Part shown: piece after piece, positions 1,987-8,826 of the stretch
How positions within the stretch are numbered: the stretch's first letter is position 1
How the letters are laid out: the number at the start of each line of letters is the position of its first letter
DNA from: Rhodothermales bacterium
GTDB lineage: Bacteria; Bacteroidota; Rhodothermia; Rhodothermales; VXPQ01
NCBI GenBank assembly: GCA_951812345.1
Contig: OX638295.1
Location: 2,542,965-2,606,964, forward strand
Direction: 5' to 3'
Length of the DNA: 64,000 nucleotides
Made by a program: the position numbers and the translations under genes
Notes under the pieces: generated by a model
What the model saw: the letters and a program-made list of their open reading frames with translations, nothing else
Told to the model about the DNA's origin: nothing
Database searches by the model: none

Positions 1987-2940
1987 ATGGGACTTGCAGA
2001 CTTGGTACAATGTGTTGAATTGCTGAAGGAACGCATTCAGTCGCATGGCGCCGCGTTGCGGGAAAACGAAACGCGCACGCGCATGGCGCTGATTGATCCG
2101 CTGCTGCATGCGCTCGGCTGGAACGTATCCGATCCCGGGGTTATTACGCCCGAGTACAGAGTGGCGGAAGGTTGGGCCGACTACGCATTGCTGCGACCCG
2201 ACGGAAGACCGGCTGCCACCGTAGAAGCCAAGAAACTTGGTGCGGGGCTGACCTCTCACCGGATGCAGATGCTCAATTATGCGAATGCGGCTGGCATTAC
2301 ATACGCCGGACTGACCGACGGAAACCATTGGGAGTTATACGATGTCTTCCGGCAGGCAGCGTTGGAGGAAAGGCGGATATTGGAAGTTTCCATCGCCGAT
2401 GCCCCGGCACACGAAAGCGCCCTGAAACTGCTGCTACTCTGGCGACCCAACCTTGCGTCCGGCCAGCCTGTACCAGCCGGCACACCGATTGTTGGCGAAA
2501 CTCCACGACCGACGCCAACGCCTGACGATGTTGAACTGCCGCCCATGCCACGGCCTGTATCCGCGGATTGGGTAGAATTATCCGAATACCATCCGCCAGG
2601 GGGTACCTCGTGCCCAACTGCCATCCGATTCTGGGACGGCAGCGAACGGCCCCTGAAGAATTGGAACGAAATACTTACCGATGTTGTGAGGAAACTCTAT
2701 GCGGAGCAATGGCTCACCCTCGAAGATGTCCCGATAGGATGGAGCAAGAAGGTATACAGCGTGAATACCAAGCCAGTTCACCCAACCGGCAAGCCATTCA
2801 TAAACTACAGAAACATAGAAGGAACGCCGCTGATCGTGAATGTGAACTTGAACGCGGGACAAGTCAGAAAAAACACCAAGAAACTGTTGGATCGCTTCGG
2901 CCAAAAATCCGCCAAGGTATATTTGCGGATAGCGAAATAA
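1987..2940 (+). CDS. HsdR_N-like (PD-(D/E)xK fold) domain protein with Pro-rich linker and unrecognised C-terminal domain
   Basis: The N-terminal ~150 aa (NETRTRMALIDPLLHALGW...ADYALL...ATVEAKKLG...) match my memory of the type I restriction enzyme R N-terminal domain pattern (D...E-x-K). The linker is PRPTPTPDDVELPPMPRP. The last 16 codons and the stop lie inside a repeat also present at 12312. Confidence 0.6.
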   Translation: MGLADLVQCVELLKERIQSHGAALRENETRTRMALIDPLLHALGWNVSDPGVITPEYRVAEGWADYALLRPDGRPAATVEAKKLGAGLTSHRMQMLNYANAAGITYAGLTDGNHWELYDVFRQAALEERRILEVSIADAPAHESALKLLLLWRPNLASGQPVPAGTPIVGETPRPTPTPDDVELPPMPRPVSADWVELSEYHPPGGTSCPTAIRFWDGSERPLKNWNEILTDVVRKLYAEQWLTLEDVPIGWSKKVYSVNTKPVHPTGKPFINYRNIEGTPLIVNVNLNAGQVRKNTKKLLDRFGQKSAKVYLRIAK

Positions 2941-3066
2941 GGCAATTCGGTCTGATTGAACAGATTCCGGCGGGAATTAAGGCGTACCGTTGCAACCTTG
3001 TTCCGACCCAATCAATCCGACGAAACCCATATCAAGACGCATGCGCAGAACCCACAGTCCTTCGTC
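2891..3066 (+). repeat. R-family mosaic repeat, copy a
   Basis: Aligns by eye with 12312-12487 (ATCGCTTCGGCCAAAAATCCGCCAAGGTATATTTGCGGATAGCG...ACCCACAGTCCTTCGTC). Its 3' two-thirds also align with 6453-6575, 7301-7407 and 7408-7490. Confidence 0.7.
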
Positions 3067-3208
3067 AGTCAGATCGAAGAACTGATTTTGAGGCCACTGC
3101 CGATCTGAAGATTCAGCACTGGCCTTAAGAAGATTGGAACAACTAGCCCGAGGGGGTTAAGCCGCTTTTGGGAACGGCCCTCTAGTCGCGACCCATAATA
3201 TTAAGATA

Positions 3209-4445
3209 GGGAATTACCGGTTTAACTTGACATTTTCAATGTAAGTTCTTATATTTACAGATAGTTAGAACGAATATAGAGAGGTCAAAAACATGGCTCA
3301 CAGAACACATCGAAACGGCATATCCGTAATGCAGTTGGCCGAGATGTTTCCCGACGAGGAAGCGGCCCGACGGTGGTTCGAATCCCGCATCTGGCCCGAC
3401 GGGCGCCATTGCCCGCGCTGCAAGAGCACCCGCACCCGCGAGGTGAAGGCTGCAAAGCCTATGCCCTACTGGTGCACCGATTGCCGGAAGTATTTCAGCG
3501 TCAGGGTTGGCACGGTCATGGAAGCCTCCCGGCTTCCGCTGCGCAAGTGGGTATACGCCATCTACCTGCACATGACGAGCCTTAAAGGCGTATCGAGCAC
3601 GAAGATTGCACGGGACATAGATATTCACCAGAGCAGCGCGTGGCATCTGCTCTAACGGATTCGCAAGGCATTCGACGCCGGAGAAGACAATCTCTTCGGC
3701 GGCCCGGTAGAGGTGGACGAGACGTTCGTCGGCGGCAAAGAAGCGAACAAGCACGAGTCGAAGAAGCTGCACGCAGGCAGGGGCGTCGTAGGCAAGACGG
3801 CAGTCGTTGGCGCAAAAGATCGGGCGACCGGCAAGATCAAGGCCGAGGTCGTCGAAGATACGACCGCCGCGACGCTGCATGATTTCGTGCTGGATCATAT
3901 CCTGTTCGGCACCCCCCTGTACACCGACGACAACCGGGCGTATACCGGCCTGCGGTACATCTACGACCTCGACACCGTGAAGCACTCCGTGGGCGAATAC
4001 GTGCGGGGCATGGTGCACACGAACGGGATCGAATCGTTCTGGGCCACGCTGAAGCGGGCGCACAAAGGCGTATATCACAAGTTCAGCAAAAAGCACCTGC
4101 ATCGCTACGTGCAGGACTTCGTTGGTCGCCACGACCTGCGCGATTACGACACGCTGGAGCAAATGGCCGAAGTTGCCCGGAGCATGACCGGCAAACGGCT
4201 CCGGTACGCGGACCTGATCGCATAAAACCTCATTGCCGGGCCATCGAGCCGTCCGGTGCGGCGTGAACATCCCGTCCCTTATTGAACGGGGGATCGGTAG
4301 CGATGAGGTCTACCTGTTCGGAGTTCATTGCTCGCATGAATGCGAGGTTTTCGCCTTGGAACAGCGTATGATTTGTTCAGGCAGATTCCATAGGCGGAAC
4401 ATACGGGCTGGATCAAGGACCCGTCAAGTTAACCCGGTAATTCCC
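3209..4445 (+). mobile_element. IS1595-family insertion sequence, copy 1 (transposase inactivated)
   Basis: IRL is GGGAATTACCGGTTTAACTTGAC (3209-3231). IRR is GTCAAGTTAACCCGGTAATTCCC (4423-4445). It is near-identical to copy 3. Confidence 0.85.
3293..4225 (+). pseudogene. IS1595 (ISXO2-like) transposase with premature stop
   Basis: Colinear with the intact 310-aa copy at 7622-8554, but codon 121 is TAA (3653-3655) where copy 3 has CAA (7982-7984). The ORF track splits it into 3293-3655 and 3713-4225. Confidence 0.85.
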
Positions 4446-4482
4446 TTAAAAAGGGCGTGTCCGCTAAACTGTGTAAGCGGGA

Positions 4483-4863
4483 TTATTGTTCGATGGGGAC
4501 TCTGTCCCCGTAGAGTATGACGAACTGGTTGAGGGCGGCCTTCCAGTCCCGGATCGGCCGCTTCCACTTCTTCGAGGCTTCGCGCAGGCCCAGGTAGAGC
4601 AGTTTGCGCACGGCGTCGTCGTTGGGGAAAGCGCCCCGTCCCTTGACGATTTTGCGCAGGCTGTAGTTCAGCGATTCGATCGCATTGGTGGTGTAGACCA
4701 CCTTGCGGATCGCAGGCGCATAGTCGAAGAAAGGCGCCAGACGCTCCCAGTCCTTCCTCCAGAGCGGAGCGATAGCCGGGTACTTCTCGCTCCATTGTCT
4801 CTCGAAAGCCTCGAGCGCCGCGAGAGCAGCCTCTTCGCTCGGCGCTGCGTAGACCGCGCGCAA
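4483..4863 (-). pseudogene. IS256/Mutator-family transposase, C-terminal 126-codon fragment
   Basis: ...AIRKVVYTTNAIESLNYSLRKIVKGRGAFPNDDAVRKLLYLGL...W is the characteristic IS256-family C-terminus. The N-terminal ~270 codons are absent. Confidence 0.85.
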
Positions 4864-4865
4864 AG

Positions 4866-5446
4866 ACGACGCCCCTGCCTGCGTGCAGCTTCTTCGACTC
4901 GTGCTTGTTCGCTTCTTTGCCGCCGACGAACGTCTCGTCCACCTCTACCGGGCCGCCGAAGAGATTGTCTTCTCCGGCGTCGAACGCCTTGCGAATCCGT
5001 TGGAGCAGGTGCCACGCGCTGCTCTGGTGAATATCTATGTCCCGTGCAATCTTCGTGCTCGATACGCCTTTCAGGCTCGTCATGTGCAGGTAGATGGCGT
5101 ATACCCACTTGCGCAGGGGAAGCCGGGAGGCTTCCATGACCGTGCCAACCCTGACGCTGAAATACTTCCGGCAATCGGTGCACCAGTAGGGCATAGGCTT
5201 TGCAGCCTTCACCTCGCGGGTGCAGGTGCTCTTGCAGCGCGGGCAATGGCGCCCGTCGGGCCAGATGCGGGATTCGAACCATCGTCGGGCCGCTTCCTCG
5301 TCGGGAAACATCTCGGCCAACTGCATTACGGATATGCCGTTTCGATGTGTTCTGTGAGCCATGTTTTTGACCTCTCGATGTTCGTTTTAACTATCTGTAA
5401 ATATAGGAACTTACATCGAAAATGTCAGGTTAACCCGGTAATTCCC
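4866..5446 (-). mobile_element. IS1595-family copy 2, 3'-truncated, inverted orientation
   Basis: The IRL complement is at 5424-5446. The transposase N-terminal ~165 codons (5362 down to ~4866) are near-identical to copy 3 (one C-for-R substitution, CKSTCTREV vs CKSTRTREV) up to ...KKLHAGRGVV. Homology then stops at the junction with the IS256 fragment. Confidence 0.85.
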
Positions 5447-5478
5447 TTTTGTTTCAATGTATATGTATGTTGAACATA

Positions 5479-5507
5479 TTGACAATATGCCGTAGCATAT
5501 TTTAAGT
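5479..5507 (+). promoter_or_regulatory. Candidate sigma70-type promoter for the cargo genes
   Basis: TTGACA (5479-5484), a 17-nt spacer containing the palindrome ATATGC-CGTA-GCATAT, then TTAAGT/TAAGTT. It sits in a ~32% GC stretch 85 nt upstream of the 5593 start. Motif reading only. Confidence 0.3.
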
Positions 5508-5592
5508 TATCGACAGCCTACTGTGATTCCCATACCTTAATCCCTCTAAGCTGTTCATTACGGAAGTAAATTAACAAAAAGAGGTGGAACTC

Positions 5593-5976
5593 ATGCGTAT
5601 TTACGAGACGAGAATAGTGGTGGTCGCTCTTGTGGCCTCCCTCTTTCTCATTTTGTCTGCACAGCATCCTCCAAAGGACGCTTCTGCACAGGTGGCAAAG
5701 GTAATGCTTGATTGTACCCCAAATATAGAAGGCGAATTGCCTCCTGGCTGTGGTGGTGGTGGTGTTGACGGAGGCGGAGGCGGATCAACAGGAACAACAC
5801 CTCCGCCAAGCGCCGGATCGTGCTGCGGCAATAACAAGGTGTGGATGGGGTCTTTTGGATGTATGTCGTGCTGGTCAATAGCCTTTACAGCCGGAATATC
5901 CGCAGGCTCTGTAAATGCTATTCTTGGAGTGGGTGTTGGAATAGGTACTTACATATGGTGCAGAGCTGCTTGTTAA
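5593..5976 (+). CDS. Small Cys-rich, Gly-rich membrane/secreted protein with C-terminal glycine-zipper-like segment (family not recognised)
   Basis: ATG at 5593 is preceded by AGAGGTGG. It has an N-terminal hydrophobic segment IVVVALVASLFLILSA, then GCGGGGVDGGGGGSTGTTPPP, 8 Cys, and a C-terminal AGISAGSVNAILGVGVGIGTYIW. The ORF track starts it at GTG 5584. Confidence 0.5.
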   Translation: MRIYETRIVVVALVASLFLILSAQHPPKDASAQVAKVMLDCTPNIEGELPPGCGGGGVDGGGGGSTGTTPPPSAGSCCGNNKVWMGSFGCMSCWSIAFTAGISAGSVNAILGVGVGIGTYIWCRAAC

Positions 5977-6005
5977 TCACAGAACAACCAGACCAAGGAG
6001 AAACG

Positions 6006-6368
6006 ATGAAACACGCGATCTTGGGCCTTTTGACAGTCCTTGTCATGGCGACGCCCTCTTGGGCTGACGACGAAAAAAATGCCAAAATCGGCCTTGTTGA
6101 AGTTCTTTCCGTTGAGATGCTCCCGTTTATTCGACCTTCGATTGTTCTTCAAGATACCGCTTTAGCCGCTGTGTTCTACGAAGAGCCTGCAGGATGTTGG
6201 ATGGAGCGCCAAGACCAAAGGCTGCACCTTGCCACTTACGTCCACCTTGTGGGAATAGGCATGGAGCTTCCTTACGACTGGACACTTGTTACCCTCGGTT
6301 CGGTTCTTGCCACAGACTATGCCATGTGCAAGATCAAACAGCGCAGACAAAGAAAGCGTGGCAAATAG
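6006..6368 (+). CDS. Small secreted protein with basic C-terminal tail (family not recognised)
   Basis: AAGGAG lies 5 nt upstream of ATG 6006. The signal peptide is MKHAILGLLTVLVMATPSWA and the tail is KIKQRRQRKRGK. It is in frame within track ORF 5841-6368. Confidence 0.5.
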   Translation: MKHAILGLLTVLVMATPSWADDEKNAKIGLVEVLSVEMLPFIRPSIVLQDTALAAVFYEEPAGCWMERQDQRLHLATYVHLVGIGMELPYDWTLVTLGSVLATDYAMCKIKQRRQRKRGK

Positions 6369-6404
6369 CACGTCACGCATTTTCGGAAAACAACGTTAAA
6401 GAAG

Positions 6405-6433
6405 GAGGGGGTTATCATGCCCCCTCTTTTTTT
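6405..6433 (+). terminator. Intrinsic terminator
   Basis: Stem GAGGGGG (6405-6411)/CCCCCTC (6420-6426), an 8-nt loop, then TTTTTTT (6427-6433). It lies 37 nt after the 6368 stop. Confidence 0.65.
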
Positions 6434-6452
6434 CAAGCATTCTTAGAGGTGA

Positions 6453-6637
6453 GAGGTGGTTCGGTTTGATTGGACAGATTTCGGCGGAATTTAAGGTGTA
6501 CTATTGCGACCTTATTCCGACGCAATCAACCAGAAGAGACCCATGTCAAGACACCCACGCAGAACCCATAGTCCTTCGTCCAAGGCGAAGGTAGAAATGG
6601 TCCGAAAAAACTGGACAGTTTCTCCGGACCATTTCTC
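6453..6637 (+). repeat. R-family mosaic repeat, copy b, ending in a 12-bp-stem hairpin
   Basis: GAGGTGGTTCGGTTTGATTGGACAGATTTCGGCGGAATTTAAGGTGTA...GTCCTTCGTCC aligns with copies a, c, d and e. The hairpin is AGAAATGGTCCG (6593-6604)/CGGACCATTTCT (6625-6636). Confidence 0.65.
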
Positions 6638-6711
6638 TTGATACAACGGCCTTCCATACTCCGGGCCATGACCGAAGATATGGCAACTTTCGTATATAAA
6701 TCCCTTCACCT

Positions 6712-7290
6712 ATGAAACGCCTTATACTTCTCTCGCTTTTTCTTTGCATCGCAGCTTCCGTTCATGCTCAATCGGCCTCGTCATGGACCGTAGGAGTGGG
6801 ATACACCGGCATGAAGTTTGTTAATGAAGTGTTCCCTTCGGGGATTTATCTCCAGTCGACAAGGAGAATAAACGGCCATATGGCTGCCGTTGTATCGGTG
6901 ACTAGGTATAGCAAGAACGAGATGGAAGAGGAAGAAGGATTATCCGCCGATGTAACCACTTCTTTTCTTGGCGCGCTCGGTGGAATCATGGTTGTGGCGC
7001 CCCTTACGCCGTCTCCGCTTAATTCGGGGGACTCATTTTTATATGGCACGGCGAAAATAGGTATGGAACGGTTGGAGGCAAAAGTAGAGATCAATATACC
7101 ATCTCTTGGCAACTCCAATATTGACAATTCAGAGAACGGTTTTGCCTTTGAACTTGGGGCCGGACTGCAAGCACGTATACGTCGGTATATAGCCTTGGAC
7201 ATGTCGGTAGCTTACCGCCGTAAGAATTATGAAGAGGATGTTTCGTTTAACAACTTTGTATGGTATGGAGGGCTGATATTCAGGCTATAG
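6712..7290 (+). CDS. Outer-membrane beta-barrel protein (OmpA-like/porin-type small barrel)
   Basis: The signal peptide is MKRLILLSLFLCIAASVHAQ. It shows an alternating hydrophobic beta-strand pattern and a C-terminal ...VWYGGLIFRL with terminal aromatic/hydrophobic residues. Confidence 0.65.
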   Translation: MKRLILLSLFLCIAASVHAQSASSWTVGVGYTGMKFVNEVFPSGIYLQSTRRINGHMAAVVSVTRYSKNEMEEEEGLSADVTTSFLGALGGIMVVAPLTPSPLNSGDSFLYGTAKIGMERLEAKVEINIPSLGNSNIDNSENGFAFELGAGLQARIRRYIALDMSVAYRRKNYEEDVSFNNFVWYGGLIFRL

Positions 7291-7300
7291 CAGGGCGGTA

Positions 7301-7537
7301 GAGGTGGTTCGGTTTGATTGGACAGATTTCGGCGGAATTTAAGGTGTAATGTTGCGACCTTGTTCCGACCCAATTAACCAGAAGAGACCCATGTCAAGAC
7401 GCACAAAGGTGGTTCGGTTTGATTGGACAGATTTCGGCGGAGTTTAAGGTGTAATGTTGCGACCTTGTTCCGAACCAATCAACCATTAGGAGAGAAATGG
7501 TCCGAAAAGACTGGACAGTTTTTCCAGCGTTTTTAAA
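7301..7537 (+). repeat. R-family repeat, copies c and d in tandem (d cut by IS1595 copy 3)
   Basis: 7301-7407 and 7408-7537 both begin (GA)GGTGGTTCGGTTTGATTGGACAGATTTCGGCGGA. Copy d runs into ...GAAATGGTCCGAAAAGACTGGACAGTTTTTCC and ends at the IS IRL. Confidence 0.65.
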
Positions 7538-8774
7538 GGGAATTACCGGTTTAACTTGACATTTTCGATGTAAGTTCCTATATTTACAGGTAGTTAGAAC
7601 GAATATAGAGAGGTCAAAAACATGGCTCACAGAACACATCGAAACGGCATATCCGTAATGCAGTTGGCCGAGATGTTTCCCGACGAGGAAGCGGCCCGGC
7701 GGTGGTTCGAATCCCGCATCTGGCCCGACGGGCGCCATTGCCCGCGCTGCAAGAGCACCCGCACCCGCGAGGTGAAGGCTGCAAAGCCTATGCCCTACTG
7801 GTGCACCGATTGCCGGAAGTATTTCAGCGTCAGGGTTGGCACGGTCATGGAAGCCTCCCGGCTTCCGCTGCGCAAGTGGGTATACGCCATCTACCTGCAT
7901 ATGACGAGCCTTAAAGGCGTATCGAGCACGAAGATTGCACGGGACATAGATATTCACCAGAGCAGCGCGTGGCATCTGCTCCAACGGATTCGCAAGGCGT
8001 TCGACGCCGGAGAAGACAATCTCTTCGGCGGCCCGGTAGAGGTGGACGAGACGTTCGTCGGCGGCAAAGAAGCGAACAAGCACGAGTCGAAGAAGCTGCA
8101 CGCAGGCAGGGGCGTCGTAGGCAAGACGGCGGTCGTTGGCGCAAAAGATCGGGCGACCGGCAAGATCAAGGCCGAGGTCGTCGAAGATACGACCGCCGCG
8201 ACGCTGCATGATTTCGTGCTGGATCATGTCCTGTTCGGCACCCCCCTGTACACCGACGACAACCGGGCGTATACCGGCCTGCGCTACATCTACGACCTCG
8301 ACACCGTGAAGCACTCCGTGGGCGAATACGTGCGGGGCATGGTGCACACGAACGGGATCGAATCGTTCTGGGCCACGCTGAAGCGGGCGCATAAAGGCGT
8401 ATATCACAAGTTCAGCAAAAAGCACCTGCATCGCTACGTGCAGGACTTCGTTGGTCGCCACGACCTGCGCGATTACGACACGCTGGAGCAAATGGCCGAA
8501 GTTGCCCGGAGCATGACCGGCAAACGGCTCCGGTACGCGGACCTGATCGCATAAAACCTCATTGCCGGGCCATCGAGCCGTCCGGTGCGGCGTGAACATC
8601 CCGTCCCTTATTGAATGGGGGATCGGTAGCGATGAGGTCTACCTGTTCGGAGTTCATTGCTCGCATGAATGCGAGGTTGTCGCCTTGGAACAGCGTATGA
8701 TTTGTTCAGGCAGATTCCATAGGCGGAACATACGGGCTGGATCAAGGACCCGTCAAGTTAACCCGGTAATTCCC
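7538..8774 (+). mobile_element. IS1595-family insertion sequence, copy 3 (intact)
   Basis: IRL is at 7538-7560 and IRR at 8752-8774, both the same sequences as in copy 1. It carries a single uninterrupted 310-aa transposase ORF. Confidence 0.9.
7622..8554 (+). CDS. IS1595-family (ISXO2-like DDE) transposase with N-terminal zinc ribbon
   Basis: CPRCKS...CTDCRKYFSVRVGT is the zinc ribbon. It is followed by an ISXO2-like core (VEVDETFVGGK...YTDDNRAYTGL...HTNGIESFWATLKR). Confidence 0.9.
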   Translation: MAHRTHRNGISVMQLAEMFPDEEAARRWFESRIWPDGRHCPRCKSTRTREVKAAKPMPYWCTDCRKYFSVRVGTVMEASRLPLRKWVYAIYLHMTSLKGVSSTKIARDIDIHQSSAWHLLQRIRKAFDAGEDNLFGGPVEVDETFVGGKEANKHESKKLHAGRGVVGKTAVVGAKDRATGKIKAEVVEDTTAATLHDFVLDHVLFGTPLYTDDNRAYTGLRYIYDLDTVKHSVGEYVRGMVHTNGIESFWATLKRAHKGVYHKFSKKHLHRYVQDFVGRHDLRDYDTLEQMAEVARSMTGKRLRYADLIA

Positions 8775-8826
8775 TTAAGATATTCAGGCAAGCAATATAA
8801 ATTTCATGAACGGTGAAGGTGACGCC

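Follow-up and report, generated by a model that had tools for sequence, protein, structure and literature searches.

The stretch of DNA described here, a 64,000-nt window at positions 2,542,965-2,606,964 of a single 2.82-Mb contig of a Rhodothermales bacterium, contains near its left end a composite transposon whose cargo (5447-7537) carries three genes. These open reading frames (ORFs), designated ORF1, ORF2 and ORF3, encode proteins of 127, 120 and 192 amino acids (aa), and their presence, as described in an initial annotation of the sequence, was confirmed. The subject of this work is the mobility of this three-gene cassette, its relatives, and the role that it may play in competition among bacteria.

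The composite transposon and its cargo

The block 3209-8774 is a 5566-bp composite transposon of the IS1595 family of insertion sequences (IS) inserted at this site, because it is bordered by identical octamers and because the flanks, when joined, are contiguous in congeneric species. In a sister species the corresponding sequence (G011:C459) aligns without interruption over the junction and contains a single related octamer, TTATGATG; the junction is also spanned by matches in G007, G004 and G008. An empty site within the same genome was looked for and none was found. The features by which an IS1595 composite transposon is recognised, IS copies at both ends, an 8-bp duplication and an empty site, are all present (Table 1). 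The transposase of the left copy is split into two frames, 3293-3655 (120 aa) and 3713-4225 (170 aa), whereas that of the right copy is intact (PF12762, E = 1.5e-39; NF033547, E = 9.4e-50), so composite transposition probably depends on the right copy. On the left the cargo is preceded by the tail of an IS256-type transposase gene, matching profile positions 277-378 of the 379 in PF00872, and by a truncated IS1595 copy, which gives rise to inverted repeat I1 (4866-5449 versus 7535-8118, 98% complementary).

Table 1. Coordinates, in the window, of the IS1595 composite transposon, its cargo and the bordering duplications
Feature	Position	Strand	Remarks
Left 8-bp target-site duplication	3201-3208		TTAAGATA, read directly; identical octamer at 8775-8782
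IS1595-family copy 1, outer left end	3209-4445	+	repeats D1, I2 and D4; ORFs compared with the intact 310-aa copy
IS256/Mutator-type transposase, 3' fragment	4446-4865	-	ORF 4483-4863; PF00872 (Transposase_mut), E = 2.1e-25
Truncated inverted IS1595 copy	4866-5446	-	fused to the IS256 tail; terminal repeat abuts the cargo
AT-rich leader 5' of ORF1	5447-5592	+	41-44% guanine plus cytosine; Shine-Dalgarno-like AGAGGTGG
ORF1	5593-5976	+	127 aa; ATG start, in-frame GTG at 5584
ORF2	6006-6368	+	120 aa; signal peptide, acidic low-confidence region, C-terminal helical hairpin, polybasic tail
Intrinsic terminator 3' of ORF2	6397-6437	+	GC-rich stem followed by a run of seven U; predicted free energy -24.2 kcal/mol, z = -3.2
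Internally deleted IS3-family element, resembling a miniature inverted-repeat transposable element (MITE)	6452-6637	+	186 bp; 143-nt left end joined to ~45-nt right end
ORF3, small outer-membrane beta-barrel	6712-7290	+	192 aa; PF13505 (OMP_b-brl); signal peptide ending SVHA, before Q
Two further partial IS3-end repeat copies	7300-7537	+	repeat families D2, D3 and D6
IS1595-family copy, outer right end	7538-8774	+	intact 310-aa transposase at 7622-8554
Right 8-bp target-site duplication	8775-8782		TTAAGATA, identical to the left octamer

The cargo had initially been described as AT-rich and foreign. Its composition is indeed low in guanine plus cytosine (GC), 47.5% over 5450-7534 against 58.5% in the genome, and the GC content at third codon positions is 0.41 in ORF1, 0.54 in ORF2 and 0.49 in ORF3, as opposed to 0.78 in the flanking IS1595 transposase. 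Low GC is, however, characteristic of these genes and does not prove that they were imported recently, because in relatives the barrel gene has ~49-51% GC even where it occupies a conserved site in the chromosome. Of the proposed horizontally acquired module, the mobile part stands, given the composite transposon, the target duplications and the empty site, but the label of foreign is not supported: all homologues found come from the same Rhodothermales genus or from metagenome contigs, and in those contigs checked, at the outer-membrane protein loci, the flanking genes are 83-95% identical to those of this genome.

ORF1 and ORF2 are separated by 29 nt and each is preceded by a Shine-Dalgarno-like site (AGAGGTGG for ORF1, AAGGAG for ORF2). 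The terminator and the miniature IS3 element lie between ORF2 and ORF3, so ORF1-ORF2 may be regarded as one transcription unit and ORF3 as another, and the co-transcription of all three genes put forward in the initial annotation is unlikely. The promoter suggested at 5479 did not fare better, as a sigma-70 scan called none on the + strand near that position or elsewhere in 5447-5592; on the - strand the same scan reported the palindrome that forms the ORF2 terminator. In a scan against Rfam nothing was detected beyond the tRNA at 1750-1837.

The three protein families and their loci in relatives

The ORF1 product consists of a signal-like N-terminus, a disordered linker rich in G, S, T and P, and a C-terminal part with a beta-hairpin and a Gly-rich hydrophobic helical hairpin; the eight cysteines, the spacer and the Gly-rich hydrophobic C-terminus listed initially are all present. 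All eight cysteines are kept in the family, in the pattern C..C..CCG[ND]N..CxxC..(27-33)..CxxxC with the last pair near the end, at pairwise identities of 22-61%. In the AlphaFold2 (AF2) model residues 24-72 form the disordered linker, and the C-terminal module, with a predicted local distance difference test (pLDDT) score of ~70-77, comprises the beta-hairpin 82-92 and the helical hairpin 93-105 and 109-126. The CxxC lies at the start of the helical hairpin and the CxxxC at its end, a modelled geometry that suggests two stapling disulfides. The hydrophobicity of the hairpin is moderate (Kyte-Doolittle 1.1-1.5). A small-xxx-small zipper had been claimed for this segment and can be accepted for the allele in the window, which has three strict GxxxG motifs, but not for the family, since strict zippers are absent from several members; the glycine zipper was accordingly rejected as a family trait. 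What is conserved instead is a hydrophobic segment of ~30 residues between the Cys pairs, ~40% of which are Gly, Ala or Ser. No match of ORF1 to Gly-zipper_Omp, Gly-zipper_YMGG, Rick_17kDa_Anti, Bacteriocin_IIc or Entericidin was listed in Pfam at E <= 1, with the HMMER filters dropping most matches above ~E = 0.1.

For ORF2, too, the elements described initially (signal-like N-terminus, basic tail, ribosome-binding site and terminator) were found. Two cysteines, C64 and C108, are invariant in its family, and an AVEV-LP motif and the C[KR]-basic tail are also kept. The AF2 model contains a helical hairpin formed by residues 69-85 and 90-119 (pLDDT ~80), with C64 and C108 placed where bridging is possible. 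Confidence in the C-terminal helical hairpins of ORF1 and ORF2 is moderate (pLDDT ~70-83). No match of ORF2 to the NCBIfam sorting-domain models (PEP-CTERM and relatives) was obtained at E <= 1. Paralogy of ORF1 and ORF2 was considered, as both end in a ...Y..C[RK] hairpin, and is not supported (hhalign probability 3%).

As anticipated in the initial annotation, which had recognised no family for either protein, ORF1 and ORF2 gave no credible match in Pfam, NCBIfam, PHROGs, PADLOC or PDB sequences, profile searches of the PDB included, and structure searches were likewise empty. Five true relatives of ORF1 and one low-complexity false match emerged when 1.84 billion representative proteins were searched with a profile, while a word-based search of 5.8 billion proteins returned no relative of ORF1 and, for ORF2, only ORF2 itself. 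The ORF1 of this genome is missing from the public gene calls searched, without even a match to itself; its homologues in other assemblies are called. A six-frame search of 60 relatives located homologues of ORF1, and likewise of ORF2, in three sister species only, so that carriage of ORF1 is patchy (4/12 species). In 400 other genomes of the phylum there was no credible match to ORF2, the single one obtained being broken by three stop codons. Conservation of both genes, on which the initial proposal had been made to depend, was thus observed, and the cysteines are invariant. Because full-length open homologues with these cysteines exist, the ratio of nonsynonymous to synonymous substitution rates (dN/dS) is below 1 (0.32-0.40 for ORF2 pairs), and ribosome-binding sites and a terminator are in place, ORF1 and ORF2 can be considered real genes of undescribed families, belonging to no known family.

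The description of ORF3 as an outer-membrane beta-barrel is supported by a PF13505 match of 36.2 bits against a cut-off of 28.7, in which residues 6-182 cover profile positions 2-167 of 175; nearly the full model, which stands for small barrels of the OmpX, OmpA N-domain, Opa and Ail/Lom type, is matched. In the six-frame genome search the score was 35.6 bits, and the whole genome contains five PF13505-like matches. The NCBIfam models OmpX and Adr match ORF3 weakly (E ~0.02). The signal-like N-terminus reads MKRLILLSLFLCIAASVHA, followed by Q, and the C-terminus ...GGLIFRL, with Phe at position -3 rather than terminal. No match to ORF3 was found in the 400 other genomes of the phylum; by its sequence it can be assigned to a genus-restricted subfamily of PF13505, with a dN/dS of 0.34-0.68.

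The closest homologues of ORF3 are 70-81% identical to it and occur in a conserved chromosomal setting of genes for SpoIID, AP-endonuclease-2, a TMEM220-like protein, the barrel, Sua5 and DnaK. In this genome the same setting is found at 1,398,504-1,402,389 with only ~40 bp at the position of the barrel (G000:C1:1401384-1401424), whereas in relatives a low-GC barrel gene lies between the TMEM220-like gene and sua5 (L039, L041-L044 and L050; 4001-4591), 70-77% identical to ORF3 in the five checked. The barrel between these two genes is a presence/absence polymorphism at a core locus. No ORF1 or ORF2 was called in the 8-9 kb fetched around each chromosomal barrel locus. The barrel fragment in G009 was also checked and does not lie at the TMEM220/sua5 site.

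Whether the trio recurs elsewhere had been set as a test, and it was found in two other species. In the window ORF1-ORF2 is followed by the terminator, the MITE and the ORF3 barrel gene. At G011:C642 ORF1-ORF2 is followed by a gene for a 136-aa membrane protein, no remnant of which was found in the window, and then by a barrel gene 75% identical to ORF3. In G010 ORF1 is followed by the gene for a distantly related 206-aa barrel and then by a convergent ORF2. In G009 and L046-49 a barrel gene (30-33% identical) is divergent from ORF1, L033 contains ORF1 with a G010-type barrel, and at G011:C483 a distant ORF1 paralogue is accompanied by a 194-aa barrel-like protein. The seventh arrangement, L034-37, has ORF1-ORF2 beside an integrase gene and without a barrel. 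ORF2 follows ORF1 in four lineages, directly in the window, G011:C642 and L034-37, and a small barrel gene adjoins ORF1 in six of the seven ORF1 lineages. This linkage is far from chance, because the genome holds only five PF13505-like matches; the barrel types concerned are remotely homologous to each other (hhalign 87% and 61%). Other copies of the cassette have integrase, IS3 or IS1595 genes as neighbours.

Relative to the allele in the window, ORF1 is 34-41% and ORF2 26-33% identical between species whose GlpK proteins are 94-97% identical. Judged against GlpK, the ORF1-ORF2 cassette is hypervariable; the divergence of ORF1 is spread along its whole length.

ORF2 is also found without an intact ORF1. 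At G011:C575 an ORF1 with stop codons directly precedes an intact ORF2, and in G006 ORF2 lies beside IS1595 with no ORF1 within 12 kb. In L046-48 (7646-8605) a full-length ORF1 is followed, 2.3 kb further downstream, by an array made up of a C-terminal ORF1 fragment, one complete ORF2 and a second ORF2 truncated at its N-terminus; in L049 (7646-8167) a single hybrid has apparently arisen by recombination between the two ORF2 copies. By eye, the fragment is most like the C-terminus of the G011:C642 ORF1, and the closest relative of the ORF2 next to it is the G011:C642 ORF2 (56%). Both features generally expected of toxin/immunity pairs, a small gene immediately downstream and a partner persisting beside a degraded toxin gene, are present, and the survival of ORF2 beyond ORF1 would be the pattern expected of an immunity gene.

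Possible functions of the cassette

All three products look exported, as they have signal-like N-termini. The reading that we tentatively favour, as possible and not as established, is that of a genus-restricted, fast-evolving antagonism cassette for bacterial competition, with ORF1 as the toxin, ORF2 as its immunity protein and the barrel as a surface partner or receptor replacement. It is suggested by the exported Cys-rich hairpin, the coupled partner, the divergence, the patchy distribution, the mobile carriage and the persistence of the partner. The guess of a bacteriocin/immunity pair made in the initial annotation gains indirect support from the ORF2 copies that persist beside a degraded or absent ORF1; toxicity, protection, disulfide pairing, localisation and any role of the barrel are what we infer from these features.

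According to this proposal, ORF1 would be exported by Sec, its eight cysteines would be oxidised in the periplasm, and its Gly/Ala/Ser-rich hydrophobic helical hairpin, stapled by CxxC...CxxxC, would then act on a membrane of neighbouring cells. ORF2 would share a bicistronic transcript with ORF1 and serve as the cognate protector; after export, its C-terminal hairpin and polybasic tail would keep it at the inner membrane. The linked barrel may be a surface partner, either a resistant replacement of the targeted receptor, as in the BSAP loci of Bacteroides discussed below, or an anchor or release factor for ORF1. A bolder version is distinctly unlikely: that ORF1 is the founder of a novel class of antibacterial peptides in Rhodothermales, "stapled hairpins" with four disulfides that are exported by Sec, that self-protection is double, by ORF2 and by a replacement allele of the receptor barrel, and that IS1595 composite transposons and integrase-linked islets spread the kit within the genus.

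Several observations weigh against an antagonism cassette. The AF2 models are poor overall, with a mean pLDDT of 56 for ORF1 and 60 for ORF2, the acidic region of the latter being of low confidence, and Foldseek returned nothing significant for ORF1 against the PDB or for ORF2 against the PDB and BFVD. The C-terminal segment of ORF2 is weakly hydrophobic (Kyte-Doolittle <1) and contains charged residues, which makes its membrane anchoring uncertain. The cassette lacks an exporter by which a Sec-delivered peptide could cross the outer membrane, and an eight-stranded barrel is not known to serve as a peptide channel. The barrel also occurs alone at the conserved chromosomal site in relatives, and no ORF2 is within reach of ORF1 and the barrel in G009 (over the ~6 kb of downstream sequence searched) or in the 4.3-kb contig L033. 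That ORF1 and ORF2 co-vary carries little weight, as adjacent genes do so by linkage alone.

No gene adjoins ORF1 as constantly as the barrel does, in six of seven lineages, and this may also be accommodated by a module for envelope surface variation or phage exclusion, which we consider somewhat unlikely. The barrel would here be a variable surface protein, serving as phage receptor or decoy, and ORF1 and ORF2 periplasmic or membrane accessories that modify, mask or stabilise it, with the rapid divergence as the outcome of an arms race against phages, not against bacteria. The fast evolution of the barrel seen in its dN/dS, its polymorphic presence at a core site and the copies beside integrases and IS elements are consistent with such a role. 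Against it, no PADLOC or PHROGs model and no viral fold was matched, the C-terminal fragments of ORF1 that precede ORF2 copies are left unexplained, and the ORF1-ORF2 pair of L034-37 has no barrel at all.

The eight conserved cysteines of ORF1 recall those of fungal hydrophobins, which also number eight, although their spacing in ORF1 is unlike that of hydrophobins. A hydrophobin- or amyloid-like ORF1 forming a self-assembling or matrix surface system, displayed via the barrel and with ORF2 as chaperone or nucleator, is very unlikely. Its Gly/Ala/Ser-rich hydrophobic segment (~40% small residues) and disordered Gly-rich linker would suit self-assembly, and glycine-zipper proteins of the CdzC type aggregate at the outer membrane (PMC5380434). 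ORF1 has, however, no internal repeats, and a structural role does not predict such extreme allelic divergence, patchy presence in 4/12 species or the occurrence of ORF2 without ORF1.

A periplasmic thiol- or metal-handling module, in which the CC, CxxC and CxxxC of ORF1 bind a soft metal or perform redox chemistry in the manner of the small, transposon-borne Mer-type membrane proteins with cysteine pairs, is extremely unlikely. It draws on the invariant vicinal and CxxC cysteines and on the transposon-borne state of the cassette. No Mer, Cop or Cus family match was found at E <= 1 in Pfam or NCBIfam, no reductase, regulator or efflux gene is present in any locus examined, and genes for metal resistance normally show good conservation, unlike the 30-40% identity seen here inside one genus; Mer-like metal handling was rejected for want of partner genes and of a family match. 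The chance that ORF1 or ORF2, or both, are fortuitous open frames in IS-flanked junk is practically nil, since this explanation, despite the odd composition of the region and the absence of ORF1 from the public gene calls, is in effect refuted by the conservation data, namely full-length homologues in several species with open frames and invariant cysteines, together with the dN/dS values and expression signals given above.

Comparison with known systems and further observations

The ORF1 and ORF2 families are undescribed, but the kind of system that the cassette most resembles is known. In the Cdz system of Caulobacter crescentus the glycine-zipper bacteriocins CdzC and CdzD are paired with the inner-membrane immunity protein CdzI (PMC5380434), and glycine-zipper toxin tips provide another functional precedent (PMC10434224). 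Shared with Cdz are small (~85-130 aa), hydrophobic, Gly-rich exported proteins and a small partner encoded alongside, which in Cdz is the membrane immunity protein; the continued association of the Cdz toxins with the outer membrane suggests that a linked component of that membrane has a role. The Cdz proteins differ in their type I secretion, cleaved leader and extended GxxxGxxxG repeats and in the absence of a conserved Cys framework, whereas in the cassette the signal is of the Sec type, eight cysteines are invariant and a strict zipper is not conserved; there is no sequence similarity between the two. No secretion genes of the cdzAB type were found in the transposon or in the related loci.

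In the BSAP loci of Bacteroides a toxin gene stands beside a resistant replacement of its outer-membrane target (PMC4999547). The cassette, from the same phylum-level lineage, is comparable to the BSAP-1 and BSAP-2 loci in that the ORF1 gene stands beside a variant outer-membrane beta-barrel gene and in that the barrel is polymorphic among close relatives, the TMEM220/sua5 site being empty here and the ORF1-linked copy 70-77% identical to those of four sequenced relatives (P0013-P0019). The BSAPs are, unlike the 127-aa Cys-rich ORF1 peptide, large MACPF pore formers, no MACPF match was obtained for ORF1 or ORF2 in Pfam, and the BSAP loci have no separate immunity gene like ORF2.

In size, Gly-rich hydrophobicity, GxxxG motifs (in this allele) and the adjacent small gene, which in those systems encodes immunity, ORF1 resembles class II microcins and class IIb bacteriocins, some members of which have disulfides. 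These differ in having double-glycine leaders and dedicated ATP-binding cassette (ABC) exporters with a C39 peptidase, neither of which is present here; no ABC exporter or peptidase gene lies beside the cassette in the loci examined, and the ABC genes of L034 are of the sugar-uptake type. In polymorphic toxin loci (contact-dependent inhibition, CDI, and Rhs) orphan arrays occur in which a displaced C-terminal toxin fragment is followed by its own immunity gene. The arrangement in L046-48, an ORF1 C-terminal fragment directly before ORF2 and downstream of a full-length ORF1, is similar to such arrays, with the difference that ORF1 is small and single-domain and there is no large filament or shell with a swappable tip.

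Should the reading as an antagonism cassette be true, ORF1 would represent a family of small antibacterial peptides, rich in disulfides and so far undescribed, that comes with a dedicated immunity protein and belongs to a lineage little studied and for the most part uncultured, and the locus would be a second independent case, in bacteria related to the Bacteroidota, of a toxin gene travelling with a variant outer-membrane protein. The locus also illustrates how an IS-bounded transposon moves such a cassette within a genus, and it provides a concrete set of three genes. If that reading is wrong, the repeated association of an eight-Cys exported protein with a small barrel would still indicate an undescribed function in the envelope.

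Some further observations concern individual loci. In G006 (L027, ~5190-7860) the 3' end of the upstream gene is present in two direct copies that flank the lone ORF2 homologue and a frameshifted IS1595, and the protein segment VPHAVFQHLANAHPEEELIKVLYWIAANP... is present twice, an arrangement that suggests an insertion with accompanying duplication. The distant ORF1 paralogue at G011:C483 (L056, 1307-1744) is a 145-aa ORF when read from GTG and 141-142 aa from its first ATGs; it has a CMTCW motif, one Cys instead of CC, and WCVAFN as its C-terminus. The 194-aa signal-bearing protein encoded 55 bp after it (1799-2383) ends in Phe and is remotely similar to the G010-type barrel, with no Pfam match.

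Full IS3 copies elsewhere in the genome (~1.3 kb) have their left and right ends ~1.25 kb apart around an orfA/orfB (rve) pair. The 143-nt left end is present in more than 30 copies in the 2.8-Mb genome, some of them internally deleted MITE-like units. IS3-family instances lie at 6452-6637, 7300-7537 and 2938-3043 of the window and at G000:C1:1059090-1060378 (L003, 1501-2789); in L003 an IS3 end provides the final codons and stop codon of a gene for a 479-aa protein. In L049 IS3 also sits between the barrel and ORF1. The palindromic right-end piece of ~44 nt (GAAATGGTCCG...CGGACCATTTC), at 6593-6637 of the window, also stands alone just upstream of the ORF1 homologue of G011:C642 (L030, 769-810).

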